DNA of 22,435 bases from Amoebophrya sp. A120. Its lineage: Eukaryota > Protista > Dinoflagellata. The stretch spans positions 380,475 through 402,909 of the forward strand of contig CAJINV010000025.1 of the NCBI GenBank assembly GCA_905178155.1. The letters run 5' to 3'. This document shows, one piece after another, positions 1,561 through 22,435 of this stretch (position 1 is the stretch's first letter; every line of letters starts with the position of its first letter). Below the pieces are notes generated by a model. That model searched no databases. It was not told the DNA's origin and saw only the letters and a list, made by a program, of their open reading frames with translations. The translations under genes and the position numbers were made by a program.

Positions 1561-1561
1561 T

Positions 1562-4500
1562 GTGCAGGAGCATTACAAAAAGGAGATGCTTTGGGTTTTC
1601 GACGCGTTCGATATCTACACCATGAAATCTATGGAAGCGTCAGGTTTGAAATCGACAAAGTTGAAATGATTTGTCTTGCATAAAGTCTATACCAGTTGGA
1701 TGCCCAATTTCCAAGCGGTGCATGACAAATATCGGCACCGTCTGAATCCAGTTTGTCATGCTGTTTAGGGACAGAAGGCGTCTCTTGTCATGCTACTTTA
1801 GCAGCTGTATCGCAGACACTAGACAGGCTGAGCGTCGGCCTCACTTGCCATTCCTGCAAGAGAGGCACTTCATGCCTTGCAATTTATGCATGAGAAATTA
1901 TTTCAACCCTGTCGATTTCAATCCTGACGCTTCCATGAAATCCGACTTGTTCCGCTTGCTAGTCTATGAACTGCAAAAGTCTCGTACTCGTATAAATTTA
2001 AATGCATCACAAATTTCCCCAGCATGAAATTTGTCATGCGGATTTACCTTAAGAAAAAAATTTGTAATGCATGGCTGCAATTAGAATTACTACGAGTGCG
2101 ATACTTTTGCACAGGATATAGTCCTGTACCGGGAGGGCGGCGTGTACATAGACTGGAAGCTCATATCAACTGCAAATAAAATGTCTGGGTCTGGAAATTT
2201 GTAATGTTGCGTTGGGAATAGTGAATGCTCTGTAATGCACAGGCAAGCATGCGAAATATGAATATCTACGCTTTATTTTTGTGTTGCGTTTTTCGCATGA
2301 CAAGCTGCGTTTTTGCATGACAGGCAAAAGGGTCTCTTTTTGGACACGCATCACAAACTTTTTGGTCATGCCAGACAAGCATGACAAATCTCGCAATCTT
2401 CCAGACCCAGACATATTGGCATTTGATAGCTCACCCCCATCGTCGACTGGGACCAGCTGTTATCTTGTGCAAAAGTATTGTATCGTACTAGAATAAATTG
2501 CATTACAAATTGACTCAGCATTACAAATTTAAAAATTTGTAATGCTGATCGACATGGAGAAGAAGATGCATAAATGCAATTACTACGAGTATCGGATACT
2601 TTTGCACAGGATGGATGTTGGAGAAGGCGTTTTCCGGGACGGAAAAGTTCCGGTCCCCATATCAAGTGCAAATATGTCCTCTGGGTCTGGACGAATGCGA
2701 GGACTTGTGATGCTGCATTTGGATTCCAAAAAAAATCTGTATTGCGTGATGAGGAGCGACGGGAACAATGTGATTTTTCCTACGCGAAGAGGGCACTCGT
2801 CGTGCGGAAGTAGAGGCATCTTCAAGATGCATGCCCTCACAAAGTCTGTGAGGCTAGGGCATGCATCACAGATCGATCATGGCTCACGCGATGAAACGCG
2901 CATCACAAGTATCAGAATCTTCTTTCAGACCCAGATATTATATTTGCGATGCATACCCCAAGAAAAGTGACGAGAGACCCCGTCACGGGCAACATCGTTG
3001 CGGAGGAAAAAATGCAAAACAAGGACGACATTGGGCTCCTCGCCTCCTGCCAAGATTTCACGTTTGGGTTTGGGGTCCCTTACTTTTTCGAATCGTTTCC
3101 GGCTATCAAGCAGTTGCCCAGTTGGCCGAATCAAGACTCATCATTACAAGGCTTGACAAATGGCTTCCTCGCGGCGAAACCTCTAAACTTACTCCTCGGG
3201 GACATGCTCTACCATTTATTCCGCCGCGCGGAATTGCACAGCTACGGAAACACCGTTTGGGATACCACGGGGCCAGTAAGCCTCTACATGTCCTTATCAA
3301 ATGTAAAAATGTCTGGGTCTGGAAGAATGCATGTTTGTCATGCTTGTCTGGCATGACTATTAAATCTGTCATGCACGTTGCCCAAGAGCCGCGTTTTTCT
3401 GTCATGCGGAGACGCAATTTGTCATGCAGAATAGGCAACACCTACAAGCTCAGAAATTTGTCATGCTGAGCCAGCACTTGTGGGCTCCTCATGCTACGCC
3501 ACTCAGCATCACAAGTTTCCAGACCCAGACATTTTTACAGTTGATAGTCCTTACTCCGGGCAGACCCCACGAAGGTCCGAGAAATGCCACAGGTGATGTC
3601 GCAAAAGAACCCTGCGCAGACTCCTAGTGCGCCGTATCAAATGTAAAAATGTCTGGGTCTGGAAGGTTAGAACTTGTCATGCTAAATCTGAATGATGCAA
3701 AAATCTGTGTTGCGTGAGTACCAAAAGCTGTCCGCTTTTGACTAAATTGAGAGGGAGTTTTCTCATGCAGGAAAGGCATGATTGAGACCTCACAAAATCC
3801 GGCATGCTGGGTCTCACATTCCAGACCTCACGGGTCATGGAAAACCTGCATCACAAATCTTGCATTCTTCCAGACCCAGACACTTTTACATTTGATACGC
3901 CGAGCAGTTCGACATCTTCAAATCCCGCCGGCCTTCTCGACTCTGCGGGGTGGGCTATCCAACGCCAAGCGCGGCGGAAAAGCGGCGATGTCCTGGGAAA
4001 GTGGGAGTGTTTGCAGCTCCAGGGGGGGCCGGGCGATGCAGCCTTTCTTGCCTTCGACGGAAACGGAAATAAATGGTTTCCGAACCGCGAAGTCAGGTAT
4101 TCCCTTCCGTGGGATATGGCATTCTCAAAAAATGTTGCGATTCTCAATTGTTACATTTTTTTTCTTTTTATGCGGAATTGCAATCAGGATCCACACGATA
4201 AAGCTGCTTCGCATTACAAATTCTCGAAGAGCCCAACAATCTTCTGTGCGAAATCTGTCATGCAAGACGCGCAAGGTCCCCTCTTTCACTTCTGTTGCCG
4301 TTCTCGCATTACAACACTTGTCTTGAGAATGTAACGTTTGAGAACGCCATATGCGATGACCCAGGGCTCGAACAGCTCGCCTTGGTAAAAAAGGCGGGGT
4401 TCCACCACGCCGGCGCCGGGTGGAGTAACGACGACAGCTATGACAAGGAAAAATCCCCCTCCCCATATCAAAAGGAAGTTTCTGATGCTGGATTTGCGTA

Positions 4501-5817
4501 TACAAAAAATCAGGTATGTCTTGCAGTAGAGGGCTGCAGGCTCCTGCCAAGCCTGAGTACTTACTAGAGAGGTTTTGGCCTAGGCGCTTAGCATGAGAAA
4601 CGTCCATGCTGTAGGCCCAACAGCATAGCATCACAAACCGCCTGCATAATAAAGGCGGCAAAGCCTGTGGAGTTGTCTTCTTGCAAGACAGACGTGATTT
4701 GTAGTCTCAAATGAGCAAGACAAATTTGCGGAAACATACCTTTGCGATATGGGGAGGGGGGATTGTTCCTCTCAATAGCACCGCGCCGCTGCCGCCCGGA
4801 ATCCGCCGCCACCTCGTATCACATAAAAAAAGTGTTACAGTTACACACTTGTTGGAGTTTCTGCATCACAATCACAAAGTCGCGAGACTATAAGGGAAAA
4901 GAGGAAAACCTGCTGTGAAGATGCGCAGACTATAAGGGAAAACACGAATGATAATAAAATGAGGTTAGCAAGCATTTCCTGCATGACCACAGAGGTTGCG
5001 TTGTCTGTCTTGCTTGTCTCCCATCAGAGTGTGTAACTGTAACACTTTTTTCTTGCGATACCTCGGCGGGCAGAATTACATGGACGAATTATCCTGAGTA
5101 AAAACATCCGCCCCACACCAGAGTCAAGATGGGGATTTTGCAACACAAACCTAGAACTTTTGGGGGTCACGCATCACAAGTTGCAGTCCGTAGTGTAGTG
5201 CAGGTTCGCAAGGCCAGCTGCATCAGAAATCCATCTGCTCATCCTGTTTGCAGTATTACAAATTCCAAAACACGACTAACAATGCCTCTCCTGGCGATGC
5301 GCATTACAAATGTTCCCGTCATTGCAAATCTGCATGACAACTCTGGTGTGGGGACGTTTTTACTCAGGATATGAATGGAAGAAAAGGAAGTGGTTCAACG
5401 CCAACTGCTACCAGGAAGTTCCAGGGGTGCCTACCAATAGGAAAAATCCCCACTCAGTCCCCATACTGTTGAAAAGGTATATTTTTGGAAATTTGTGATG
5501 CTGATTTGTGATCACAAATCGTGTCTGTCTTGCGCGAAGGCATCTCCACAGACAACCGCCGCACTGCGCAGGCGGTTTGTCATGCTGCTGGGCCTACAGC
5601 GAGGACGTTTTTGTTTTTCAAATTATAAGCGCCTAGGCCAAAACCTCTCTACTCGCGCTTAGTATGGGCCTGCAGTGCTCTCCAGCAAGACAGCTCGGAT
5701 TTGTGTACACCAATCCAGCGTCGGAGATAGCCTTCGTTTTAATATGGGGAGGGGGGATTTTTCCTTTCGATAGTGCCATGGCCGGGCGTCGCGGATAAGG
5801 AGTACCAGTGTCGGTAA
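1562..5817 (+). CDS. 5'-partial glycosyltransferase family 32 gene (Gly_transf_sug / Och1-Sur1-like); 13 exons separated by 12 non-canonical introner introns
   Basis: Exons, keeping the left TSD copy: 1562-1611, 1922-1964, 2124-2163, 2434-2460, 2619-2659, 2961-3294, 3552-3634, 3903-4114, 4357-4438, 4783-4816, 5066-5089, 5377-5431, 5778-5817. Total 1065 nt = 354 aa + TAA, no internal stop. Protein: VQEHYKKEMLWVFDAFDPDASMKSDLFRLLVLYREGGVYIDWKLTPIVDWDQLLEKAFSGTEKFRSPRKVTRD...GLTNGFLAAKPLNLLLGDMLYHLF...VWDTTGPVSLYMSLLRADP...RHLGGQNYMDEWKKRKWFNANCYQEVPGVPWPGVADKEYQCR*. The motifs ksDlfR..vLy..GGvYiD, N.f.aa.P and tGP are GT32 hallmarks. Confidence 0.92.
1612..1916. mobile_element. Introner / non-canonical intron 1 of the GT32 gene (diverged)
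   Basis: tatctacaccatgaaat ... atttcaaccctgtcgat; TSD ttcga/ttcaa; removal joins DAF-(D/N)PDASMKSD in frame. Confidence 0.82.
1965..2118. mobile_element. Introner / intron 2, family 2 (tgcaaaagtatcg TIR)
   Basis: tatgaactgcaaaagtctcgtactcgta ... tacgagtgcgatacttttgcacaggata; perfect TSD tagtc; joins FRLLV-LYREGG. Confidence 0.93.
2164..2428. mobile_element. Introner / intron 3, family 1
   Basis: tatcaactgcaaataaaatgtctgggtctggaa ... ttccagacccagacatattggcatttgata; perfect TSD gctca. Confidence 0.93.
2461..2613. mobile_element. Introner / intron 4, family 2
   Basis: tatcttgtgcaaaagtat ... atacttttgcacaggatg; TSD gctgt/gatgt; frame preserved. Confidence 0.9.
2660..2955. mobile_element. Introner / intron 5, family 1 (diverged)
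   Basis: tatcaagtgcaaatatgtcctctgggtctgga ... tcagacccagatattatatttgcgatgcata; perfect TSD cccca. Confidence 0.9.
3295..3546. mobile_element. Introner / intron 6, family 1 (opposite orientation to 2164-2428)
   Basis: tatcaaatgtaaaaatgtctgggtctggaa ... ttccagacccagacatttttacagttgata; perfect TSD gtcct. Confidence 0.95.
3635..3897. mobile_element. Introner / intron 7, family 1
   Basis: Near-perfect ~31-bp TIR; perfect TSD cgccg; close relative of 13770-14031 and of 22186-22435 (inverted). Confidence 0.95.
4115..4351. mobile_element. Introner / intron 8
   Basis: tatggcattctcaaa ... tttgagaacgccata; TSD tggga/tgcga; frame preserved. Confidence 0.88.
4439..4777. mobile_element. Introner / intron 9, family 3 (aatccccctccccatat TIR)
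   Basis: tatgacaaggaaaaatccccctccccatatc ... gatatggggaggggggattgttcctctcaata; TSD acagc/gcacc (3 of 5 match); frame preserved. Confidence 0.85.
4817..5060. mobile_element. Introner / intron 10, family 4 (aaaagtgttacagttacac TIR)
   Basis: tatcacataaaaaaagtgttacagttacac ... gtgtaactgtaacacttttttcttgcgata; perfect TSD cctcg. Confidence 0.94.
5090..5371. mobile_element. Introner / intron 11
   Basis: tatcctgagtaaaaacatccgccccacaccagag ... ctctggtgtggggacgtttttactcaggata; TSD cgaat/tgaat. Confidence 0.93.
5432..5772. mobile_element. Introner / intron 12, family 3
   Basis: taccaataggaaaaatcccc ... ggggatttttcctttcgata; perfect TSD gtgcc. Confidence 0.92.
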
Positions 5818-5845
5818 AAAGAAGGGACGACGAGCAGTTGGCGAC

Positions 5846-6826
5846 CAATGAATGCAAAAGCAAAGAACATGGACGAAATTTGTCTTCCTCGTTGAGGAAA
5901 CGAAACCACGTGCCACCACGCAACAAAGGAGTAGAAACAGCACAAACAGGATAACACGATCAGGATGTCAGCTTGTTGTAGGCGGTTCTGGGTCGGAAAT
6001 TCCACGCTGGTCATAGTTTTTACTTCAACTTTCGCACAACGCAACAGCAGATCCGCTCGTGCAGAAGTTGTAGCTGTAGCACGACTACGCAATAAACACT
6101 TTTAATTTTACCCTCAGGAACAACACACTACTACAAAATATCACTCCAAGTACTAAAGCTGTAACTTTTTTTTCACGAACGACCAAAAAAGCACAGGACG
6201 AATATCGAGCACACCGGTGCAAGCTCGAAAACCCCGGTTAGAGTCAGGCATCTGGGTTTCGTAATCTCTCAGGCGTCGGCGCATTGTTTCTATTCAGATT
6301 AGCACCGCAGTACAAGGCTTAACCGCAAGAGGACCACACTCCCTACCAATTTTGAAAGGCGAAAACTTTTGAGCGAGGCACTGCCGCCGATGGTGGGCCA
6401 AGTTCTTTGACGTCTGCGAAACGCGATCGAGTTCTAAAAAATAAAAACATCTTACGCATGCGCCAATCAACTATCAAAAAAGTGTGAGCCTTGTGTAAAT
6501 TCATTTATTTTCCTAGTTTTTAGTCTCTTGGGTCGTCTTAGTCGGCCACACAAACGTGTGTGGCTGCGACGGCGGGAGTTGACTCTGCAGGGACCGCTTA
6601 CGGAGTTAGCCCTGGGTCCCCCAAGCTAGTACTGTAGGAAAGCAAATCGAAGTAGGAGCAATAAGAGTCGAACGCTTTACGTTGTACCTAAGTCCCGCGG
6701 CGCAGACGAAGAAATGTGAGAAATCAAGTCAGTCGGCTGAGCAAGAACTCAGAGCCATTATATATATTTATCATTATAGCGCAATGAATGCAAAAGCAAA
6801 CATGGACGAAATTTATCTTCCTCGTT
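5846..6826. repeat. 45-48-bp direct repeat pair (5846-5893, 6782-6826) bracketing ~0.89 kb of unique DNA
   Basis: caatgaatgcaaaagcaaa(gaa)catggacgaaattt(g/a)tcttcctcgtt occurs twice, 936 bp apart. Confidence 0.9.
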
Positions 6827-7230
6827 ATTTTGGCCCAAGCTACGCGGGGGGTGCGGGCAAGTACGTACTTATTCAAAAAGGCCGGCCCCCCTATGCGTGT
6901 AAGGCTTGGCTCGGGACACCTTGCGGCACGAAAGTCCTCCTAAAAAAAAAAAGGCGCCGCCGCCGTATTATCTGAAAGAAAACGAAAACATGAAAGGCCG
7001 GGGCGCTGCGGAGAAGCCGCCGCAGGCACGCCTCTCACCAAGTCGGACGAAGTTTATCTTTCTCTTTTTTTCGGCCCAAGCTACGGTGGGGGCGCGGGTA
7101 CATACCAAACAGAACCGGCCCCGCCCTTACGCGTGTAAGGCTTGGGCCGTGCCACTTTTGTGGCGCGAATTTTTTGGAGCCGCCACCGCTACCGCCCCGC
7201 CTCCAGCTAGTAGGCAAAGGCGAAGGCCCA
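6803..7230. repeat. Diverged tandem duplication, ~240-bp period
   Basis: ggacgaa.tttatctt...ggcccaagctacg...gcgtgtaaggcttgg at ~6803-6908 and ~7044-7145. Outer limits are approximate. Confidence 0.75.
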
Positions 7231-7498
7231 TTTTTGTCCTCGAAAGCAAACTGCTTTCTGTGCCCAGGGCCGCAAGCACATAAATACCTCCGTAGTACGT
7301 CAAAAGCCTTAATATAGTTTTAGTTCTATCTGCTTCATCAAGCAGACTGCTTGGCCCAACAATTCTTCACATCTGTGAGACAAATACTAACGATGTCTTT
7401 TTCAATCAGTATCAGATTTTTCAGCTCAATTTTTCAGTGGGACAGAAACTCCGAATTCTGTACACAACAGCAGGCATTAATTATGCGTGATGTAGTTG

Positions 7499-7707
7499 TA
7501 TCGCAAGAAAGAACTGTTTCACTGTAAACCTGTGATGCAGAGAACGAAACACCAAAGTGTTTGTCTTGCTACACCTGCAACGCAATGGCTTTTTAAGCGT
7601 GTTTTCCCTTGGGAAACGCGCATGGCAAATTATCTGTGTCATGTGTAAGAAACTTGTGATGCAGATCTTGCAAAACCATCACAGTGAAGCAGTTTTTTCG
7701 TGGGATA
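7499..7707. mobile_element. Introner-type element, family 5
   Basis: tatcgcaagaaagaactgtttcactgt ... acagtgaagcagttttttcgtgggata; TSD agttg/tgttg; reverse-complement homolog of 15996-16205. Confidence 0.92.
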
Positions 7708-7767
7708 TGTTGATATAATTCGTCGTCCGAGTGCCGTCGCGTGGAAGACAGCCCCGCGCACTTCCTC

Positions 7768-8091
7768 TATCAAGGTGAAAAAAGCCCCCACCCCATATCG
7801 GAAACGGAAGATTCGCGAATTTGTGATGCTGTATTTGAGTACACAAATCGACGTGTATTGCTAGAAGGCCAAGAGACGAAGCTGCGGCCTAAATTGCAGG
7901 TAATCTGTCATGCTGTTTCCCACTTCCAGTTGCCTCCTGTCATCCTGGCGCTGCAAGGCTTTCCCACGTTAGGCAGCACTACAGTCCGGCGCATCTTTTG
8001 CCTTCTAGCATCACAAAGCTGATTTGTGGCCACAAATCTGCATCACAGATTTCCGTTTTGATATGGGGAGGGGGCATTTTTAATTGTAATA
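7768..8091. mobile_element. Introner-type element, family 3
   Basis: tatcaaggtgaaaaaagcccccaccccatatc ... gatatggggagggggcatttttaattgtaata; perfect TSD tcctc. Confidence 0.92.
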
Positions 8092-10700
8092 TCCTCGAAT
8101 GCTATGCGATAGGTATCAACCTTGAAACACTATCATGTCCGCAGCGTCTTGCCAAGGTCTTCGCCTATGTGGCACATGTGCCACCAGACGACTCCAGCAC
8201 CGACGCAGAGCTTTGAACCCCTCGCGGGGCTTCCCGCCCGTGGGCACTACGAAATTTCGTATAACGCCGTACCTGGTGGCAGGCACGCAAAAGCATCTGT
8301 CAGAGGGCATGATGCGTGATGTGTGAGACTACATTCAGCTTGCCGCTGAAGCTGCTTCACATCTAAAGACCGTGGCGCAAGTATCGATCGAAATGACGCT
8401 CGCAGCGAGAACCGCATTGGTGCAGACATCAGGAACAATAAGGAATTGATTTTGCCGGAGCTCACACAGACGCCCGCCCCCCTAGGGGACGCGTAGGCTC
8501 CTCCAGGCTCCGACGTTCACATGTTCTTGAGATGATCGCGCGGTCCTCTTGAAAGTAGACCCAGCAAATTCACAGAGGGGCGCTACACTACACTTTCCGC
8601 CCAAAGCGTTTGAGGGGATTGCTTTCCCGCTGTCTAATTATCTAAAAATGATCAGTTCTCTACGAAAGTGAAGTGTTGGAATCGGTCCAAAAATGCCTGG
8701 AAATGATGAATGCAGCGGTCGCTGTGTCGGATCGAAAAATGCGAAACATCGAATGCAAAGATGGTCGGTCTTGGGTAGTGGAAATGAGTGCCCATGTCTC
8801 GTCCACCAAAGTCGGTTTCTGTTTAAAGAAGATTTTTGAATTGATTCTAGTATGGCTCCTGCTAGAGTAGAACAGGCCACGTCTGGTGCAGTAGCCCCAC
8901 GCACCGCCTGGAGGTCCCTCTGGTGATAAGTACAGCAACACTGTGAGAGTTGTACCAGCCTGCTCTTGTGCGTATACCTCTACCACTTACCTAAAATAAC
9001 GCATCGCACTTTTTACGCAAAGATCATGTCGATGTGCAGCTACAATGTCGCACTAGGTAGAAGATCAAATTGGTAGTGACCGGAGGCGCACTTGCAAGCA
9101 GTTTTCGCTGGGGGCGAAAGATTTGTTTCTGTTGCTGTTCGCAAACAAGATTCCGACCTGATTATCGATACGCAGACGACGTTCTTTGACGACTACCGCA
9201 TGCAGACTCTGATACCGATCACGACCCGACAAACGACTTGTGACTTACGCTATTACTATGCGGATACGATGCGGAAGGAAGATTTGTTCTTGGGCGACGT
9301 GATGAGAAATTTGTCTTGGACAAGGAGACACCGGCCTGAAACTTGTGACGCAACATTTTCGCGCGGGGATTTTTTTTTACTGGGATACATGGAAGAGAAG
9401 ATTGGAGTTTGTCATGCTGGATTTCGACGACTTGGGTTTTGGCCACCTGATTGAGAACTCGACCCAGTGCAGAGGCGACGATGTCAATTTGTGTTTGCAC
9501 TTGATAGATCCGACTCGGCTTTCGAAATCTGTGGCTCCAGTTTGGTTTGTTTGTTTCAGAGGAAACGGAAAAAAAGGCTATAGCAGAGGCGATTTCATCT
9601 TCATCCTGTGACGCTAGTTCATCTTCTGGTGAAAATTTGTATAATAATTCAGGAACAGCTGGCTCTAGTACAAGAACAGCTGCTAGTGAAGAAGATAATT
9701 CTCGCCCAGCAGAACACATCATGATAAATCTTGTGGAAGACAGGTGCTTGAAAGTCGAGGCTTTACGGGCTGCTGCGGTGGGAGGAATAAAAGCTGCGAA
9801 TTTGTAGTAAAAGGCTCAACAATAGAGACATAGCCGCGATCTCTTCGGTAAGAGCTTTGGTTTGCCGTAAGACTAAGTCGTGCTCTGTTGTTCTTTCCAT
9901 GCTGCACCAATTTCTCAACGAAGAAGTAGTCGTGCACTGGTTATATATATATTCGATGCACCAATTTCAATATCGTCTATCTTCGAGTTTCATCATACAC
10001 CGTGACACTTGTTGTCACCTGCGAACTATTTTCGGTCAACCTCAACAATGATACCGCTTCGGTGACGTGAAGAATCGAATTTTGCAGTTTTGCCAAGCCG
10101 CACCGTTTCGGTCATTTCAAAAACGTTCTTGTCTAGACCTAAAATGAAAATCGGTCGTGCAGCGTATCGTGCAAAATTTTCTGTACGTGCGTATGGTGCA
10201 AAATTTTTTGTATTCTATCCGAATTATCGTGCAACTTCTGCTTTTCAACTACTTCGGTGTTGGTACTATCTTGTCCAAGGTTGACGCTGGCTATAATTTT
10301 TCACCCCGTCGGTCGTGCAACGAGATCACTCGTTTTTGCAACAGCATGTCGGTTGTTCTCGCCGTGCACAATATGTTGATTATCGTACACAATTCGTACG
10401 CAACATCCCACATCCACAACAGGACAATGTGAAGCTTTTGTTCTTCGCGGAATTATAAACGCTTCTACTTTGCCCCTACAAGTTTACATAAATCACTAAC
10501 GACGGCTGCTCATCTCACAGATATTGAATTTATATTTTATTGAAGTACTATTCACACCAAAAGAAAACGAAATTGAATATAAAATTATTGACCACGACGA
10601 GACAACAAAACTAAGTACTCAAAGAAACACGAAGCGGAAGCGGTGAAGAGAAACACGCATAAGAGAAGCGGAATCGTGCGTTCCTGCTGCCCACAACAAG

Positions 10701-11609
10701 TATGAGATGGACTGAGCGATTCAAAATCAACGGATTCAAAAATTTTCTTTCATGTTCCAAGCTTTTCCTGACTCTTGAAAAGAACAGCAGCATGGATGGG
10801 CTGTGTTCTGGGTGTTTTTTTGCGTTCGCCGAAACGTCGCCCAGAAGAGTATCAAGCGAACAAGCTAGGTCGATCTCAACTTGACTTCGTGACTTAGGCG
10901 TACGTGAACGCAGAAAAACCGGGAAGGGGAACAAGGCGAGTGTCTGCATTCATAAACGTGAAGAATTCGCAGAAGCAAGGGGCAACAGAGTAGGCTACAC
11001 AGCGGATACCCTCGAAGCCCAAGCCTGCCACTATTTGGCCCCAAGGCGCTTTTTTTGTTGGCATTTTTTGTTGCATTTTTTTGTTGGCATAGTAGCCCGC
11101 GCGGCCTCCGTGGACCTGGTCGAGGCTGCCGCAGGTTTACAACCTTTACGCGAGCAGGCCCAAAGGCATTCCCACCACGGCGCACCAGAAGCCGCCGGCC
11201 ATGCCCGGCGGTCGGCCCGCTTGGGTTTTGGAATGGGCCTTGGGTTGCCCTTCACATGGCTGACGCGCGTTTTTCCCGGGACACAACTTGGCGGCACTGT
11301 TGCGTCTTGTTTTTCCGATCATTTCAAGGCTTCATGCGCACGCGCTGACTTCATCCCCTACTTTGCAGCCTGTAAGTATAAAATGGCAAGTAGTTGCCTC
11401 AAGTTGAGACCGGCCACGTTGGCCTCTTTCGTAGTCTTCGGCCTACATATTTTACTTCCATAACCCGGCGCCGACATCTCCGCCACTTACCTGAAACTGC
11501 TCCGCGCGACGCCGAATCCGGGGACGTTTTGGAGGAGTTGATGGGATGCGTTTTAGTTGAAAAAAAATTTTTGAATCGCTTGGGTTTGAATCGCTCAGTC
11601 CATCTCATA
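10701..11609. mobile_element. 909-bp non-autonomous TIR element with TAT...ATA ends
   Basis: tatgagatggactgagcgattcaaa / tttgaatcgctcagtccatctcata is a perfect 25-bp TIR, extending imperfectly to ~50 bp. Perfect TSD acaag. The empty-site motif gcccacaaggtacct is visible at ~11718 and ~15579. Confidence 0.93.
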
Positions 11610-11643
11610 ACAAGGTACCTAATTCATTCCCAATCTAGACAAC

Positions 11644-13410
11644 AAACACGAAGCGGAAGCGGTGAAGAGAAACACGCAATTCCTGCGGTGAACGAAGAGA
11701 AACGCGTGCGCTCCGGCCGCCCACAAGGTACCTACTTGATTCCCAATCTAGGCATTGCATTTTTCCAGACATCTCATGCTCGGCATCACAGATGATAGCT
11801 AGGACTAGGTCGCGCAGCACCAGCGCGAACCTCGTGAGCGCCAGAATGGGTTACTAACCACCTCTGTGGCCCCATTTTTGTTCTCCCGTGGCCAGCCCTT
11901 GCCTACAAAAATGGACGACACCGGGGGAGCACAGGAGACGCGCAGCCAATGCCCACGCCGATGTCGGTGCGCAATCAATCTGGAGAGGGAGGCGAAGATG
12001 GCGCGCGCATGCTAGAGAAGCACGCACTATCAAAGGAGCAACTAAATCACTTCACATCTGAATCATAGGGCCAAAAAAAAAAATTTTTGAGTATTAATAT
12101 AGCTTAGCATGAAGAAATGACTTCAGTTGTATGCACATGATGACGATGCGAATATGCCACCAGAATGGCAGTTTTGAAGGCTCAAATGAAGAGCTTTGAT
12201 TTTGAACTAGATAGTTGATAGCTGCAGGACGATCTAGATAAGTAGCTAGCTGAAGATCATGGTTTATTTGATGAAAAAACAAAGAATATTAGAAGGATTT
12301 CGCCTTGTGGCTTCCGGCCGGCAGCCTCTCGCCAAGCTGGAGCGAGGAGCTGCTACGCCTCCAATGTGGAGAGCTGCTGGGAGACATAAACCGCCAATGA
12401 GCCGAAGAGCTGGCACTCCGTGACGAAGCAGCCCAACGGATTCGGAGCTGGTACTCCGTGACGAAGCAGGCCAACGGATTCGCCCGAATCCGTTGGGCTG
12501 CTTCGTCACGGAGTTCCAGCCCTCCGGCAGAAGAAGCACACATTCTTCCCCGCAGAGCTCCACGTTGGCGACGTCCCAGCTCCTCCAGCCTGGCGGGAGG
12601 CTGCCTGCCGGAAGCCACCAGGCGAAATCCCTTTACTTTTCTTTGTTTTTTCATTAAATAAACCATGATCTTCAGCTACTTATTTAACTAGATCTTCCTG
12701 CAGCTATCAACTACCTAGTTTAATTAAGAAGCTCAACAGCAGAGCCTTCTTCTGCCGTACCTGGTTTGCATTCTGCATCATATCAACGCAATCATTCATA
12801 AGTGAAAGCCACATGATTTGTTACTTGAAATACATTAAAAAAATTTTTTTTTTGGCCCTATGATTCAGATGTGAAGTGATTCATTTGCTCCTTTGATAGC
12901 ACGCGCGGCTTGTTTACTCATCTTGACGCGAATATATATAATTTAGCGAGCTCGTGGCCCCTCTCTCCGGCGACGCAGTGGCCCGCCACTGCCCGCTAGC
13001 GACCTCTGTTGGGGAGGGTTCGGGACTTGTTGCAGCCTCTGTTGCACCCGGCGCTGCGACCTCTCGGCGCAGTGCTGGAGCACGGTTCGACCCACGTCTG
13101 TGGGCGGACAAGTGCGACGCCCGCAGCCACCTCTGTGGCGCGGACGTCGCGGCGCGGTCCCTGCTGCACGCCTCGCTACTGTATCTAGTAGCACAAAAGA
13201 CGCTGCGAAGCAGCGCAGATACACTTTATACAGAGCCGGAGTTGTTCCACCACTGTGAAGGGTGTCGTGGCCTTTTGTTGAGAACATACGGACTAGAGCA
13301 GCGGCCCCATGCGGCCGCAGAACTGCGGGGATTTGGGAAGTAGTTTGTGTTCGCCTCACGATGATCACCAAGATGCTACCCAAGTCACATCATGGATCAG
13401 GTACCAACAG
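11644..13410 (+). repeat. ~0.9-kb backbone repeat, copy A (contains the 12028-12898 foldback); a partial extra copy of its first ~105 bp starts at 10625
   Basis: Collinear blocks shared with 13411-22165: gcggtgaagagaaacacgca; gcccacaaggtacct; taggtcgcgcagcaccagcgcgaacctcgtgagc; gcctacaaaaatg; ggaggcgaagatg; cccgctagcgacctctg; gtgctggagcacgg; cggcgcggtccctgctgc; aggtaccaacagggcggaagc. Confidence 0.88.
12028..12898. mobile_element. 871-bp foldback element (palindromic over its whole length), TAT...ATA ends
   Basis: The start tatcaaaggagcaa..aatcacttcacatctgaatcatagggccaaaaa pairs with the end ttttggccctatgattcagatgtgaagtgatt..ttgctcctttgata. The arms stay complementary to a centre at ~12483 (aacggattcg-cc-cgaatccgtt). 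Flanked by gcac; absent from backbone copy B at ~16805. Confidence 0.93.
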
Positions 13411-13448
13411 GGCGGAAGCCGAAGCGGTGAAGAGAAACACGCATTACG

Positions 13449-14031
13449 TATCAAATGTAAAAATGTCTGGGTCTGGAAGATTCTAAACCTGTAATGCTGT
13501 CTCTGGATTCTAAAAAATTTGTATTGCATGACCAGCAAAAGGACTCCAGTTTGTGCTACGTGAAGAGGGCATTTCTCATGCGGTAGAGGCACCACAAAGT
13601 CCTCTGAAAATCTGTGATGCTAGGGCATGCATCACAGACATCATCGGCCATTCAAAATATGCATGACAAACCTGGCAATCTTCCAGACCCAGACACTTTT
13701 GCAATGGATAGGTGGGCGCGACCTGCCACCCGGTGGGGCGGGAGGAATTCGACGTGCCTCCACCAGCACTATCAAGTGTAAAAGTGTCTGGGTCTGGAAG
13801 ATTGCAACTTGTCATGCTAAATCTGAAGCATGCAAAAATTTGTTTTGCATGAGTGCCAAAAGCTGTCCGCTTTTGACCAAGTTGAGAGGGAGTTTCTCAT
13901 GCAGGAAAGGCATGATAGAGCCCTCAAAGAATCTGTCATGCTGGGTCTCGCATTCCAGACCTCATGAGTCATGGAAAACCTGCATCACAAATCTTGTATT
14001 TTTCCAGACCCAGACATTTTTACATTTGATA
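13449..14031. mobile_element. Composite element: two family-1 introners (13449-13710, 13770-14031) enclosing a 59-bp exon-like fragment
   Basis: The TSD ttacg flanks only the outer ends (13444-13448 and 14032-14036). The inner flanks (ggtgg, agcac) match neither outer flank. Confidence 0.88.
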
Positions 14032-14065
14032 TTACGAATACCAAAACGAAAACCGAACTTCAAGA

Positions 14066-14372
14066 TATCAAAGTGAAAAAAGCCCCCACCCCATATTCAA
14101 AAGACGATTTGTGTTGGTGGATTCGTGTACTACGCAAATGAGCTTTGTAATTGCAGCAAGAGCTTGTCTGCATATAATTCTATAGCCCATTTGGGTGCTG
14201 CGCGCCCGGCTAGCAGCTGAGCATGTGAAACAAGGCTGACATATTAGGCGAAAACGCATGACAGACTCGCTGAACAATGCGCCACAAGGGTTCCGCTTGC
14301 CTTGTACGCAAGACAAAGCATCGCAAATTTTCCTCTCGATGTGGGGACGGGGGTGGATTTTTCCTTACGATA
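14066..14372. mobile_element. Introner-type element, family 3
   Basis: tatcaaagtgaaaaaagcccccaccccatat ... ggggtggatttttccttacgata; TSD caaga/cgcga (3 of 5 match). Confidence 0.83.
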
Positions 14373-14399
14373 CGCGACTCGCTTTCTCCGCGGCCTGCA

Positions 14400-14550
14400 T
14401 ATGAACTGCAAAAGTATCGTATAAATGCATGACAAATTCCCTCAGCATGAGATTGAGCAATTAAAATTTGTAAGTATATGCGTATGTGACTTAACAAAAA
14501 GATTTGTAATGCATGACTGCAATACGAGTACGATACTTTTGCACAGGATT
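14400..14550. mobile_element. Introner-type element, family 2
   Basis: tatgaactgcaaaagtatcgta ... tacgatacttttgcacaggat; right end and TSD are degenerate. Confidence 0.83.
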
Positions 14551-14603
14551 GCTTTCTATAGTTAGAACTCCGCGCCAGCTCCTTCACGACGATCGAACTG
14601 TCC

Positions 14604-14969
14604 TATCCTGTGCAAAAGTATCGGATTCGTATTGCAGTCATGCATTACAACAAATCTTTTTGTTAAGGTAAATCAGCATTGCAAATCAGTCAGGGTAGAG
14701 GAGCAATCCTCGGGCACATAGATAACAAAACGCTGCACATCTGAAAGAGTTTTTTTGAAAGAAGAAAAGAACAGACGTGCACCATCAGAAGTGTAGTGCT
14801 GGCGGTAGCACTTGTGCTGCACCATCAGAAGTGCGTAACTCGCATGCCGGGCGTGCCATGTCAGGATGTCAGGATAACGCAGAAGCTCAGTCAGTCAGTC
14901 AGCATTGCAAATTTTATCTCTCATGCTGAGAAATGCACTTATACGAGTACGATACTTGTGTAGTTCATA
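14604..14969. mobile_element. Introner-type element, family 2, inverted, with a ~0.21-kb internal insertion
   Basis: tatcctgtgcaaaagtatcg ... cgatacttgtgtagttcata; perfect TSD tgtcc. Confidence 0.9.
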
Positions 14970-14991
14970 TGTCCGGCGGGAAAATATCGAT

Positions 14992-15566
14992 ATGAGAGTG
15001 CAAAAAAACAACTCGATCTCCACGTACTACCCAGCTGCAGCCGCCCGGGACGAGAGTGCGGCTCTACTGCTGAGCGCGGAAGATAACGCAGTGGGACAGC
15101 ACGTTGAACAGGAGACGGAAAATGTTGAAAAAACCCCCGCCCACGGGGGCTGTTGCCAAGACTGCTGCACGAAAAAGTGCGTGCTCATCCTTCTCCTCAT
15201 ATTTCTCGTTCTCGCAGGCGGTGCTTGCGTTTTAATTTTCGTTCCCTGGTTCGACGTATCAAATGTAAAAATGTCTGGGTCTGGAAGGATGCGAACTTGT
15301 GATGCTGTCTTCGGATTCTAAAAAAATCTGTATTGCATGACAAGCAATTATAGGGCTCCAGTTTGTGCTTCGCGGGAGGGCATTTGTCATGCGGAATAGG
15401 CATCAAGAGGGCCTCTAAAGCTCTGTGATCATGCTAGGTCATGCATTCCAGACCTCATAGGTCATGGAAAACCTGCATCACAAGTCTTGCAACCTTCAAG
15501 ACCCAGACATATTTGCAATCCATACGACGGTTGGAGTGAATCTTTGTACACGAGATGGAGAGGAGG
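14992..15566 (+). pseudogene. Captured N-terminal fragment of a single-pass (probably type II) membrane protein gene, containing one introner
   Basis: MRVQKNNSISTYYPAAAARDESAALLLSAEDNAVGQHVEQETENVEKTPAHGGCCQDCCTKKCVLILLLIFLVLAGGACVLIFVPWFD continues in frame as GWSESLYTRWRG after removing 15257-15529. It then runs into backbone repeat DNA and stops at ~15650. Confidence 0.65.
15257..15524. mobile_element. Introner, family 1
   Basis: tatcaaatgtaaaaatgtctgggtctggaag ... agacccagacatatttgcaatccata; perfect TSD cgacg. Confidence 0.94.
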
Positions 15567-15677
15567 TGCGTTCCTGTCGCCCACAAGGTACCTAATTCAT
15601 TCTCATATTCTAAGCATAAGGCACTCCAGATCGGTCACATAATTCTAGGCATCAACTGCACAAATAGGACTAGGTCG

Positions 15678-15934
15678 TATGGATTGCAAAAATGTCTGGG
15701 TCTGGAAGAATGCAAGTTTGTCATGCTTGTCTGGCATGGCTCGAAAATCTGTGTTGCATAGGCGCGAAAAGGCCCTCTTGCCTGTCATGCAAAAACCCAG
15801 TTTGCCTTTGCCATGCGGAATACGTAAGACATGGCAGCCAAAAAATTTGTCATGCGTAGGTGCGTATTGCAGTGCGTCTACCATTCACTTTTAGCATTAC
15901 AAGTTTCCAGACCCAAACATTTTTACATTTGATA
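15678..15934. mobile_element. Introner-type element, family 1, inserted in backbone DNA
   Basis: tatggattgcaaaaatgtctgggtctggaa ... ttccagacccaaacatttttacatttgata; perfect TSD ggtcg. The empty site taggtcgc is seen at ~11806 and ~16540. Confidence 0.95.
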
Positions 15935-15995
15935 GGTCGCCAGACATCACCACCAGCGCGAAGAACCTCGTGAGCCCTGGGGGTATTGTGCGGGA

Positions 15996-16205
15996 TATCC
16001 CACGAAAAAACTGTTTTACTGTGATGATCTTGCAAGATCTGCATCACAGGTTTGTATACACATGACACAGAAAATTTGCATTGTGCGCTTCCCAAGGGAA
16101 AACACGCTAAAAAATCCAATGTCTTGCAGGCGTAGCAAGACAAATCGTTCCGTGCTCCATTCTCTGCATCACAAGTTCACAGTGAAACAGTTTTTTCTTG
16201 CGATA
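15996..16205. mobile_element. Introner-type element, family 5
   Basis: tatcccacgaaaaaactgtttt ... aaacagttttttcttgcgata; perfect TSD cggga. Confidence 0.94.
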
Positions 16206-16253
16206 CGGGAGCAAAACAAAGTGAAGTGGAAATATCAAAGCGACGCAAGCTGT

Positions 16254-16466
16254 TATCCCACGAAAAAAGTGTTACAGTTACACATTTGTTGTCAATTCCG
16301 CAACACAAATTTTCTCTGCATGAGAGAGAAAACTTGTAATGCGAAGATCATAAGGGAAAACAGGAAGGAAAGGAGGCTCCGAAGCATTTCCTGCATGAGA
16401 AAGGTTGTCTCTGTTGCCAGTCTTGCATGACAATGTGTAACTGTTGTAACACTTTTTTCTTCTATA
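16254..16466. mobile_element. Introner-type element, family 4, right flank replaced
   Basis: tatcccacgaaaaaagtgttacagttacac ... gtgtaactgttgtaacacttttttcttctata; the left flank gctgt has no matching right copy. Confidence 0.85.
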
Positions 16467-16837
16467 ATTCATTCTCATATTCTAAGCATAACGCACTCCA
16501 GATCGATCACATTCTAGGCATGATCACAAATAGGACTACTAGGTCGCGCAGCACCAGCGCGAACCTCGTGAGCAGGGCCGGAATTTTTATGGGCCAACCA
16601 CCTCTGTGGAAGGAAGGACCCCACTTTTGTTCTCCCGTGGCGGCGGTGGCCACGGCCAGAATTTCTGCCTACAAAAATGAAAATAAATGGAGGACAGCGG
16701 GGGAGCGCAGCAGGAGCAGACACACAGCCAATGCCTACGCCGATGGCGGTGCGCGAACTGGTAGGAGGGAGGCGAAGATGACGCTCGCATGCTAGTAGAG
16801 AAGCGTTCGCGGCTTGATGTTGGTCACCCTTTTTTAT

Positions 16838-17960
16838 GTTCACACACGACTCGCAAGGCACATCCTGACGTCTATGGCGCGAATACTCCAAAAACAGAAA
16901 TAGTCGCCCTCTACCAAAATAGCTTGCACTCAGCAAAAACGATCGATGAGAGATGATATTGATGATCCCCCCATTGTAGTTGACACGTTTTGATCGCCCC
17001 CCTTCCCCCCTTTCCACCGGTGGCGGTGGAAAGGGGGGCAAGAAAAAGTAAAGAGGCAGGGACTGACGTACTTTTCGTATACCCATCGGCAAGTGATAGG
17101 CACACTTTTGCCAATCGACCCGCTGTGGTAGGCATTTGTTACGTACTTAGTTATGGTGCTGGGGTGGTTTAGTATGACGAAGGAACGACGGGGAGATGAT
17201 GAAGGGGCGTTGAGCGCTCGTCGGACTTTCCCTCTTCAGCTGAAGACCGTTACTTCGGCGAAGTTTCGACATTGTCATTTGTATTGCTGGAAATTAGCTG
17301 TTGATATGATAGCCTGTTTGTTCAGAAGAAGCGATGAGATGCTGCATTTTTCTGGATCTTTTCCGCTATTGAAAGCGGGGCGCTTTATAGGAGAGGAATA
17401 GCGACATGCTTGGCATTTTTGTGGAGCTTTCCACTGCGCGGCTAGCTAGCGAATTTACTAAGGGCTGGCGCATGATTAAGGCGCTGACCCATTCTCGTCG
17501 TGCCATAGTTCTGGTGCTTTGCCTGTGCTGAACAAAGAACGGGCACACCTTGTCGCGCTCATCGAGTTTTACCAAAGTGCAGGGGCGATTCCAGAATCCC
17601 AACTTTGATCCCGCCAAACTCTCGCCCTGGAAACTTTCCTGGGCCGGGTATCAATGCTCAGCCCTTCCCCAGCTTGGAATTGAAGCTCGGGGCAGGTGGT
17701 TTCCGTGGATTCCGGGGTCGGAATTCGCCAAACTTGGGACTCAGGAATCGGCCGTAGTTTTCATGAATTCCGTTTCGGAATTCGCGAAAGTCCGGCCCCG
17801 AGCCCGGCATCAAAGTCGGCAGCTTTCGCGAATTCTTACTCGGAATTCATGAATGTTGGGCCTCGGGTTGCTAAATAGGCCTCTTCCCGTGGTGGATGTG
17901 AAGTGGCGTTGAGTTCACACACGACTCGCAAGGCACATCCTGACGTCTATGGCGCGAATA
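16838..17960. repeat. Perfect 48-bp direct repeat pair (16838-16885, 17913-17960) bracketing a 1027-bp cassette
   Basis: gttcacacacgactcgcaaggcacatcctgacgtctatggcgcgaata occurs twice, 1075 bp apart. Confidence 0.95.
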
Positions 17961-18704
17961 TGTAGAATCCAGGGGCTCGTCGTAGCCCCTTCTTCCGGCG
18001 ACGTAGTGGCCGAGCGAGCTTTGCGAGGGGAGGGCGCACGCTCGCCCCTCGTAGCGAGCCGTCATTAAGTACCCGCTAGCGACCTCTGCTGTTGCAGCCT
18101 CTGTTGCACCCGGCGCTGCGACCTCTCGTCGCAGTGCTGGAGCACGGCTCGACCCAAGTGGTCTACTCTAAAACTTCAAATAAGCGGCAATGCCGTAAAG
18201 TCCTGCGAAATCCATGCCCCGCGAGCTTGCGCCTCTGTTGGCCTGGGACAGAGCGGAAAATATTTACTACAAAGGGCCGCCGCAGCACTGTGAGTGCATT
18301 TGGGGAGCAGGGCCTCGGTATTTGGAGAGGAGAAGTCCTTTCCTTTGTAAGCTGACCGCCTTTCACTACGCACCATAGCCAAAAGCTGGCAGCTGCAAAG
18401 TCGAAACCGCTGCGAAAGAGGCAAGACCAAGAAAGGCCACAAGTAAGTAGGAAAGGCCATGGGCCACCCCAGTAGCCCTGCCAAGCAAGAGGCTGCGCCC
18501 GTCGCAACGTCCTTCCGCCAACGAGTTTCCGGACCGGGCTACCTAGCGGCCGCCGTGTCGCCCTAGCTTTATTTCGGCCGTTTTAGGTGCATGGGAGTCC
18601 TACACTATTTTTTTAAAACTGTCCTTGTCCTACACTCAGGGATCCTACTTATACTCACGGCTCGAGACCTTAGACCCAGCCTCTCCTGCGCTCCGGCGCG
18701 CGTG

Positions 18705-18840
18705 TTGTCGCACACGCGCTGCGTGACAGGGCGACGCGGTGGGCCGGGGGCTGGCGCGACGTTCCGTTGCATGTCGAACACGCGCTGCGTGACACGGCGA
18801 GGCGGTCGCTGGCCCGGGATGGGGGCGACGTTCCGTTGCA
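18705..18840. repeat. Tandem duplication, ~67-bp unit, 2 copies
   Basis: acacgcgctgcgtgaca...gcgacgttccgttgca occurs twice. Confidence 0.85.
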
Positions 18841-19013
18841 TATCTTGGATTCTAGATTTAAATAAAAACAACCTATTCCGGGGGGGAGGTTGTTTTTATG
18901 TGTGGAGAAATTTAGAATCACGGCCACAGTGCAAGATCCTGAATTTCGTCGCACATAAAAACGACCTATGCCCGGGAATAGGCTGATCTTTTGCAAATCT
19001 AGAATCCAGGATA
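18841..19013. mobile_element. 173-bp foldback MITE-like element with TAT...ATA ends
   Basis: tatcttggattctagattt / aaatctagaatccaggata, with inner arms cctattcc.gg / ccgggaatagg and gtttttatgtg / cacataaaaac; flanks ttgca/tggga. Confidence 0.75.
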
Positions 19014-19031
19014 TGGGATCGAACGTCGGGC

Positions 19032-19290
19032 GAGCAGAGGTCGATTTTATGGCCGCGGAATTTTCGCGAAAACCGACTCAACCTGTTGGAAGCAGAGGTT
19101 GATTTTATCGTCGTGAAATTTCGCGGCCATAAAATCGACCTCTTGGAAGCAGAGGCTGATTTGATTGCTCCGAAATTTTCGCAGACACAGAGTCAACCTT
19201 TTGGAAGCAGAGGTTGATTTTATGGTCGCGAAATTTCCGGAGGCATAGAATCGACCTCCTGGAAGCAGAGGCTGATTCTATGGCCACGAA
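19032..19290. repeat. Minisatellite of 57-58-bp self-complementary units, ~4.5 copies
   Basis: (g)agcagagg recurs at 19032, 19089, 19146, 19204 and 19262. Units fold, e.g. gaggttgattttat...ataaaatcgacctc. Confidence 0.88.
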
Positions 19291-20346
19291 GTAGAAGCTT
19301 TTATATTTTCTACAGCCATTGGCTGGAGAAGACGCGGCCCAAAATGCGCATGCTTTGCCAGTTTTAGTTCAGGCCCTATGCCAGATTAAGGAAGCGCAAT
19401 GGACAGTGCTGGAGCACGGCTCGACCCAAGTGGTCTATGGGCGGACAAGATTAATCCTTGGAAACATCCATCACCCTGGCGCACAAGATTAATCCTTGGC
19501 AACCCGCTACCGGGCCTGCCATGTTCATCTTTCACGCCCGCGCCCGACGTTTTCGCGTCAGCGAGTTGCTGGGGAGTCGAGCGGAAGCCGGAGGCTCATT
19601 CTCTGGCACCGCTGGCGCAGTTAGTTGATAGCGAATACATCCTAGCGCTACCCCTTTGGCGAAGGGTCAGCCGAACGGATATGCGGCTGCACCAGAGCCG
19701 CGCGAATCCAGGCGCGCTGATTGTTTGCAATTCTGCAACTGGGCCAAACGCAGCGGCTGTAGCGCGCCGCAACTGGCTGCAGCCTCTCAATAGTGGCGGT
19801 CGGCAACTCTTTTTAGCGACCGGCGTGGCGCGTCTTCTTGCAATTTTAGGATGCGGAAAAGCAGGCCGCCAGCATTCGCCAAAGCCGGGGGCCATCCGTG
19901 AAAAGCCTCCAGGTGGCCTCCCGGCCAGCGCGCATGCACCCAAAAAGCGCAGCAAATCCGAGGAAAGCACCTCCACCGAGCGCTAGCCCACCGCGCAACA
20001 TGCCTAGTAGCTGTATTTCGCTGAGCATGTCCCGCTGCTCCAGAAACTCTTGGCCGTACTTCAGCCAGGTCGCAAAGCACCCGCCCACGGTTCCGGTGCG
20101 ATCGGGAAATACTGTCAGGCATCTTGGGTTCGCATAAAGATGTCGCATGAAGACCAATACCCCAAAGAAATACCCCTTGAAGGGGGTACTTGCTGGGGGT
20201 ATTCTTCATCGTTGTGCACCGAGCTGAGTCCAAAAATCCCGGGGGGTATTGATGAGGGTATTCGTGCGGGGTATTGCTTTGGGGTATCGCGTTGGGGTAT
20301 TGCTTTGGGGTATGCGTTTTCGCATTGGGTGAGCTTGGCGAAGGTG

Positions 20347-20535
20347 AAACGCGAGCGGGAAACTTCCACCATTGCAAAATCCCAATTTGTGTTTCACCCA
20401 AACCCGAGCGGGGAATTTCCATCATTGCAAATTGTAGCTTGCCTCTCACCCAAACCCGAGCGGGGAATTTCCATCATTGCAAATTGTAGCTTGCCTCTCA
20501 CCCAAACCCGAGCGGGGAATTTCCATCATTGCAAA
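20347..20535. repeat. 52-bp minisatellite, ~3.6 copies
   Basis: caaacccgagcggggaatttccatcattgcaaa at 20399, 20451 and 20503, with a diverged first copy at ~20347. Confidence 0.93.
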
Positions 20536-22185: not shown

Positions 22186-22435
22186 TATCAAATGTAAAAA
22201 TGTCTGGGTCTGGAAGAATGCAAGATTTGCGATGGAGGTTTTCCATGACCCATGAGGTCTAGAATGCGAGACCCAGCACGACAGATTCTTTGAGGTCTCT
22301 ATCATGCCTTTCCTGCATGAGAAACTTCCTCTCAACTTGGTCAAAAGCGGACAGCTTTTGGCACTCACGCAACACAGATTTTTGCATCATTTAGATTTAG
22401 CGTGACAAGTTCTAATCTTCCAGACCCAGACATTT
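22186..22435. mobile_element. Introner, family 1, inverted relative to 3635-3897; right TIR cut by the window edge
   Basis: Begins tatcaaatgtaaaaatgtctgggtctggaag; the window ends in cttccagacccagacattt; left flank gagac. Confidence 0.93.

Follow-up and report, generated by a model that had tools for sequence, protein, structure and literature searches.

Tens of thousands of Amoebophrya introns are spliced with neither GT-AG borders nor a detectable U1, which raises the question of how such introns are recognized and removed. The stretch of Amoebophrya sp. A120 DNA that we analysed (22,435 nucleotides; hereafter, the window) poses this question within a single gene, in which copies of one repeated intron lie in opposite orientations. 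The elements in question are Amoebophrya A120-type introners that can sit in either orientation, and we estimate, with a probability of roughly 0.6, that their removal proceeds by recognition of a stem and cuts at fixed distances from it.

Host gene and inverted introner pairs

The host gene enters the window from the 5' side; its further 5' exons lie outside, and the transcript-like contigs described below have a loose end at 1558. The exons and elements of its coding region are as follows.

1565..5817, plus strand: host gene, C-terminal 352 codons of a DXD glycosyltransferase (PF04488 in paralogs)
1565-1628, 1942-1963, 2123-2162, 2433-2459, 2618-2658, plus strand: first five host exons within the window, at the inferred register
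2960-3293, 3551-3633, 3902-4113, 4356-4437, 4782-4815, plus strand: next five host exons
5065-5088, 5376-5430, 5777-5817, plus strand: last three host exons
2164..2428, plus strand: introner of the focal subfamily, orientation B; inferred intron 2163-2432, 270 nt
3295..3546, plus strand: introner of the focal subfamily, orientation A; intron 3294-3550 at the inferred register, 257 nt
1630-1937, 1965-2118, 2461-2613, 2660-2955, plus strand: first four of eight other coding-region introners (within 1630..5371)
3635-3897, 4115-4351, 4817-5060, 5090-5371, plus strand: last four of these eight (within 1630..5371)
4439..4777, plus strand: introner of another family, joint 4437>4782 (both=1); its two flanks differ
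5432..5772, plus strand: opposite-orientation relative of 4439, joint 5426>5773

Every such element of the gene region starts with TAT, ends with AT(A/G) and is flanked by a 5-bp duplication. Removal of 12 elements together with 5 nt each yields a frame of 352 codons that stops at 5815-5817 and encodes a protein 66-70% identical to four paralogs, and removal of 11 elements with one duplication copy each from 1561-5480 gives a stop-free frame of 357 codons; when the elements were cut without the extra 5 nt, stops appeared in every frame. The longest host exon matched four proteins among 170 candidates, all from Amoebophrya sp. A120, at 81-85% identity; the protein of the host gene itself was not among the matches. 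PF04488 (DXD glycosyltransferase family) was found in two scanned paralogs, and a Pfam search of five single exons or frames gave no match.

A single subfamily of TAT...ATA miniature transposons includes both 2164-2428 and 3295-3546, which lie in opposite orientations and are each flanked by an exact 5-bp duplication. Alignment of the first against the reverse complement of the second, as the earlier note on this DNA had proposed, confirmed the match, also for the interiors: with 45 nt trimmed off each end, these still share an alignment of 102 nt at 73.5% in minus orientation (E 1e-13). The same note held that both elements must be removed to keep the frame. Each does interrupt the frame if retained, but in different ways: 3295 causes a frameshift and a stop, whereas the 270 nt inserted at 2164 are divisible by three, and removal there is forced by an in-frame stop and not by a frameshift. 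When the spliced frame was aligned with the four paralogs, there was no gap at either junction. Joint 3289>3547, at which 3295 is removed, was seen in transcript-like contigs of runs X1-X3 and in X5; the 2164 joint was absent among the joints listed (15 of 33 in the X1-X4 set; 15, with 1007 further, in the X5 set), and the reading frame and the paralogs suggest that this element is spliced out as well. The focal pair thus stands half on observation (the 3295 joint) and half on deduction (2164).

The gene contains a second opposite pair, 4439 and 5432 (71% over 252 nt, minus strand). Joints 5426>5773 and 4437>4782 occur at the same contig depth in X2 and X3, and both elements are removed in one transcript-like contig, which settles the principle that both orientations are spliced within one gene, as the earlier note had claimed for the focal pair. 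Among the eight other coding-region introners, joints are listed for all except 1965 and 2461; the three elements with joints absent among the 15 of 33 listed (2164, 1965 and 2461) flank short exons.

Beyond the 5' end of the coding region, the contigs extend 5' of 1558 with exon sequence that is absent from the window. An element in the region 1330-1560 has its right end at 1560, and its left end was not found; upstream of it lies a GC-rich 92-bp tandem array of about 11 copies (1-1120).

Splice joints and the cut register

Eleven runs were listed, none of them recorded as RNA, and the RNA status of X1-X4 is the tool's guess from contigs, which give no strand; X1-X3 come from one sample and X4 from a second sample of the same study. 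X1-X4 behave as spliced RNA, with zero depth in bins 11019-11519 and 12021-12521, exons joined and up to eight junctions in a single contig, and they differ from the window at scattered sites. In X5, the run kind of which is not given, joined forms at depths of 112 and 74 occur beside exon-element boundary contigs at 41-58; this mixture, seen at 2654-2956 and 3289-3547, would fit either total RNA or a DNA source that includes paralogs or retrocopies free of the elements. The raw RNA runs X9 and X10 gave no coverage of the host gene, the 217 reads of X9 being from another locus.

Each of the 15 joints listed (of 33) skips one element plus exactly 5 nt. Most joints are slidable because of the flanking duplication, and four narrow the register: the intron can include up to 2 nt before TAT at 4115, 0-1 nt at 4439 and 13449, and only 1 nt at 13770. 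All 15 listed joints are compatible with a start 1 nt before TAT, as against 14 for 0 nt and 12 for 2 nt; no register other than 1 nt before TAT with 4 nt after ATA accommodates the full set. The exact value of this register is set by one joint, the non-slidable 13768>14036, which was seen in both samples; a base difference there between the RNA strain and the window would shift the register, and scattered differences of this kind are present in the runs. We infer that the cut is generally asymmetric about the stem, 1 nt before and 4 nt after. At this register, all 16 3' dinucleotides occur among the 271 elements of the wider set described below, with AG in 21.

The joint that fixes the register belongs to a composite element.

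13449..14031, plus strand: composite of two introners, 13449-13710 and 13770-14031, with one outer 5-bp duplication

Each half is spliced separately in X1-X4, by joints 13447>13715 (both=1) and 13768>14036 (both=0), and the own flanks of 13449 and 13770 match at only 1/5 and 0/5 positions. Since both halves lose the element plus 5 nt despite non-matching flanks, it is the element, and not the duplication, that determines where the cuts fall. Splicing can do without a target duplication, which only makes the outcome neutral. The spacer between the two introners is 59 nt, and splicing leaves a 54-nt exon (13715-13768), a multiple of three. The stretch 13444-14036 looks like exon capture by a composite introner, whether or not the exon is coding. 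Among the related loci described below, 37 mismatched duplications that were scored gave no information on the register; five loci (L028, L048, L057, L062 and L072) have elements with intact ends and flanks matching at 0-3 of 5 positions, and are natural non-slidable junctions.

Other elements in the window

Two further inverted pairs had been named in the earlier note, and both were recovered on the minus strand: 3635/22186 at 90.7% and 7499/15996 at 86.5%. The latter is not a pair of coding-region introns, since 7499 lies in the 3' untranslated part of the host transcript and 15996 inside an intron that is probably canonical GT-AG.

22186..22435, plus strand: opposite-orientation relative of 3635 and 13770; element cut by the window end
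7499..8091, plus strand: two introners, 7499-7707 and 7768-8091, spliced from the 3' untranslated region

Joints 7494>7709 and 7762>8092 are present in X1-X4, and X3 record 15 ties both to coding exons; these two introners are thus spliced where no reading frame is at stake. The 3' untranslated region is long (5818-8374), and a single X3 contig, with eight elements spliced out, reaches from 3547 to 8374. About a dozen sites in 5818-8374 differ between the runs and the window, possibly because of a different haplotype or a very recent paralog.

A second transcript runs from 10471 to 22185; one of its exons, 14974-15255, is similar to paralog P0004 in the N-terminal part of the latter (56%), with divergence after 15570. 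Two canonical introns with GT-AG borders, at about 11727-13400 and 15587-22144, are implied by loose ends, and these two share sequence. Three introner-type elements (15678, 15996 and about 16256; span 15678-16466) lie inside the second of these probable canonical introns. A 39-nt repeat is dispersed at five places (13070, 18132, 19404, 20673 and 21786) and, together with 58-bp and 52-bp tandem arrays (19033-19290 and 20347-20535), falls mostly within the long intron. Two elements of this region are unusual. The one at 10701-11609 is 909 nt, more than three times the usual length, and is spliced by the same plus-5 rule. The other, a TAT...ATA element at 12028-12898, contains nested long inverted repeats (12176-12342 and 12583-12749), and its flanks match at 4/4 and 7/8 but 0/5 positions, against the 5-bp rule; X1-X4 depth over it is near zero. 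A subterminal motif, GCAT(G/C/T)ACA, recurs with its reverse complement across unrelated element families and is a putative, likely transposase-binding site.

Orientation across related loci

Scanning with the TIR, we obtained at least 130 related loci (598,774 bases, partly overlapping), a selection for one TIR type in which the organism is assigned from shared elements only. We found no long unique match between these loci and the window and, for one test exon, no protein match, which is weak evidence. In the window and the roughly 0.6 Mb of loci together, an element detector identified 396 unique copies; 99,728 shuffled bases gave none. We assigned strands by means of a codon model self-trained on the same data, so that elements are judged here by open frames and not by RNA; the strand calls fell on a single strand in 65 of the 71 loci with two or more. 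We kept 271 elements and dropped 125 of the 396, in which the strand call was not confident, the frame fell short of 80 codons or flanks of 25 nt were lacking.

Sixteen families account for 232 of the 271 elements. Orientation per family, which the earlier note had suggested counting genome-wide and which we counted on the at least 130 loci, supports its claim: all 12 families with at least four copies lie both ways round, with no inconsistent edge. The same holds for 10 of 10 families when only frames of at least 200 codons are considered, and pairs at 90% identity or more include 38 in the same orientation vs 35 in opposite orientation. The focal family splits 30:14 (p 0.023), a skew that does not survive eight tests.

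The inverted repeat starts with TAT, seven variable bases and an A-run, and these termini hold in 100-104 of 105 copies per position when the inner TIR core serves as the anchor; 78 of the 94 core-anchored copies with intact ends have a 5/5 duplication. The elements have the TIR, TSD, short length, lack of a coding frame and high copy number of MITEs. Both orientations lie in open frames, and the hallmarks of insertion are present.

Linear signals or a stem

From the two orientations, the earlier note deduced that strand-specific signals cannot be essential and that only the symmetric TIR, folded into a stem, is common to both. Both orientations do work, and our tests found no strand-specific signals, but the deduction does not follow from its premise: the outer 30-50 nt are identical in both orientations, so that orientation independence alone cannot exclude linear signals. 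Either way round, an element offers a fixed 5' end n-U-A-U-C/G, branch-like A's and a U-run 11-15 nt from the 3' end, and the A-bearing motifs sit in the TIR on both strands.

We therefore weighed a reading in which a remodelled U2/U5/U6 spliceosome recognizes linear TIR signals (an n-UAU donor, a branch A in the subterminal repeat and the U-run) and measures the 3' cut from these, the stem being incidental; orientation would be irrelevant because the TIR repeats the signals on both strands. Besides the identical ends, the register itself speaks for this reading, as it puts U at +2 and A at +3, which are also the bases of the spliceosomal donor consensus at these positions. The U-run lies at -11 to -15 across families. 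Furthermore, A120 is described as retaining nearly all spliceosomal proteins along with U2, U4, U5 and U6 (PMC7789003), and T is at +2 in 9 of 9 listed predominant non-canonical classes (rows of Table S4 in PMC7789003), a regularity that aligner preference could also cause.

The comparison of the two ends lends this reading little help. When the 5' ends of the 271 elements were compared with their reversed 3' ends, the outer 45 positions showed no difference at p<0.001. Nor did the functional end hold an excess of branch-like motifs: CTRAY gave 22 vs 18 of 271, and CATNAC occupies the branch position in only 147 of 271 elements, no more commonly than the mirror position (169). The 3' arm is not better conserved than its 5' mirror, nor is the 3' U-run better conserved than the mirror A-run (58 vs 42 changes, 525 sites each), and the 3' dinucleotide is free.

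A further pattern is one that a remodelled spliceosome does not predict. Read in transcript orientation, 86 rare TIR substitutions give G·U and 52 give A·C (permutation p 0.0035), or 61 and 31 if singletons alone are counted; the excess of G·U is present in 8 of 9 families, with a tie in 1. Interiors, as a control, show 183 vs 182 (Fisher p 0.016 vs TIR). The excess fades to 110 vs 82 (p 0.051) when all minor variants are counted, and raw terminal pairs comprise 189 wobble vs 186 A·C, so that inherited A·C mismatches are tolerated. This modest bias in the TIR would favour RNA pairing. Predicted RNA folds pair both ends of the focal introns (stem z -4.8 for 2164 and -7.1 for 3295), as is expected for any TIR element. 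Thus, the tests lean toward the stem as the common signal, as the earlier note had it, but the cut is asymmetric about the stem, and candidate signals of the linear kind lie in the TIR as well. Taken together, we regard splicing by linear signals as an unlikely but serious alternative.

That the elements are instead absent from the DNA of the sequenced material, through empty alleles, intron-less paralogs, retrocopies or excision like that of ciliate IESs, would fit the joined and unjoined forms in X5 and the guessed RNA status of X1-X4. It fits poorly with zero depth in two intronic bins and up to eight junctions per contig in X1-X4, and with the composite: an empty site would lack the whole of 13449-14031, yet the contigs retain the 54-nt exon, and the cuts of both halves fall at non-duplicated flanks. 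We consider this very improbable. Recruitment of canonical or near-canonical sites from the target duplication is largely refuted: this published route creates introns in either orientation in Polarella and Aureococcus (10.1101/2020.10.14.339549), and both focal elements end in ATA-G, giving AG in one register, with GT at the start of the 3295 duplication, but 252 of the 271 elements offer GT/GC-AG at none of six registers, none of the five duplication positions is strongly unlike exons in composition (lowest p 0.026), and 13449 and 13770 are spliced without a duplication.

In the reading that we prefer, stem recognition with cuts at fixed distances, the two element ends would pair in vivo and the stem would be the signal, from which the machinery would measure its cuts, one lying 1 nt ahead of the 5' UAU and the other 4 nt past the 3' AUA. 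This register, fixed exactly by one joint, would be general to the elements, and as 1 + 4 equals the 5-bp duplication, any insertion in either orientation would restore the message exactly. The catalyst might be a structure-reading nuclease with a ligase, by analogy with the proposal for euglenids; this is a guess, at about even odds against a stem-guided remodelled spliceosome. Fixed register, independence from orientation and duplication, and the trace of selection for RNA pairing together make the splicing mechanism testable.

A more far-reaching version can be offered tentatively, and we think it rather less probable than not. A single code, N1-UAU...AUA-N4, with its stem read by a non-spliceosomal nuclease and ligase, would erase insertions of the dominant transposon superfamily wherever and whichever way round they land, and would splice composites that carry new exons. 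This would be a second, independent origin of Euglena-type splicing, in an alveolate, with spacers matched to the target duplication.

Comparison with known systems

The proteins matched by the host gene, four among 170 candidates, all come from Amoebophrya A120, which identifies these elements with the introners described by Farhat et al. 2021 (PMC7789003); they are thus already known, and the hairpin idea has also been published. A120 introners are described there as having an inverted repeat of TAT, seven variable bases and an A-run, a direct repeat of 3-5 nt (5 bp in the legend to Fig. S19), a length of about 240 nt and non-canonical ends, with a hairpin model; U1 snRNA was not detected, and the introner border is called unknown (PMC7789003). 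Our elements share the TAT start, the A-run, the short direct repeat, the non-canonical borders of spliced repeated introns and the A120 paralogs. In the available text of PMC7789003, "orientation" appears for genes only, and a literature search, with figures and subscription papers outside its scope, found no account of orientation or cut register for Amoebophrya introners; both the fixed register and the orientation are apparently unreported for them. TIR-flanked A120 elements with homology to LTR elements have also been described (PMC12130899).

The elements lack the GT/GC donor and AG acceptor of canonical U2 introns. Introner-like elements of Polarella glacialis and Aureococcus are intron makers with TIRs and TSDs, several classes of which insert in either orientation (10.1101/2020.10.14.339549); unlike ours, which need no such dinucleotides, they take GT/GC/GA and AG sites from the element or the duplication, and the classes described show an orientation bias. 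Introns of Fritillaria borealis (reviewed in PMC11282704) are likewise MITE-derived, with TIR, TSD and non-canonical borders, but have dominant AG-AC or AG-AT ends and spliceosomal removal, whereas the ends here are free except for U at +2.

The closest parallel in mode of action is with the nonconventional introns of Euglena (N3-CAG...CTG-N5), for which mutational tests and circular intron RNA are available (PMC12501133). Both have an inverted end motif at a fixed distance from the cuts with a shorter 5' spacer, free terminal dinucleotides, a proposed MITE-like origin and slidable junctions that mask the rule (PMC12501133). They differ in motif and spacing (CAG at +4 and CTG at -8, with spacers of 3 and 5, vs TAT/ATA with 1 and 4 here), and no purine preference is evident here at the first downstream exon base (A+G in 162 of 271). 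The lineages are unrelated, and the Amoebophrya copies are young and still in families. The introns described here work like euglenid-type nonconventional introns without being members of that class, the end-pairing stem being predicted. If this is true, two distant lineages would have reached the same way of neutralising transposons.
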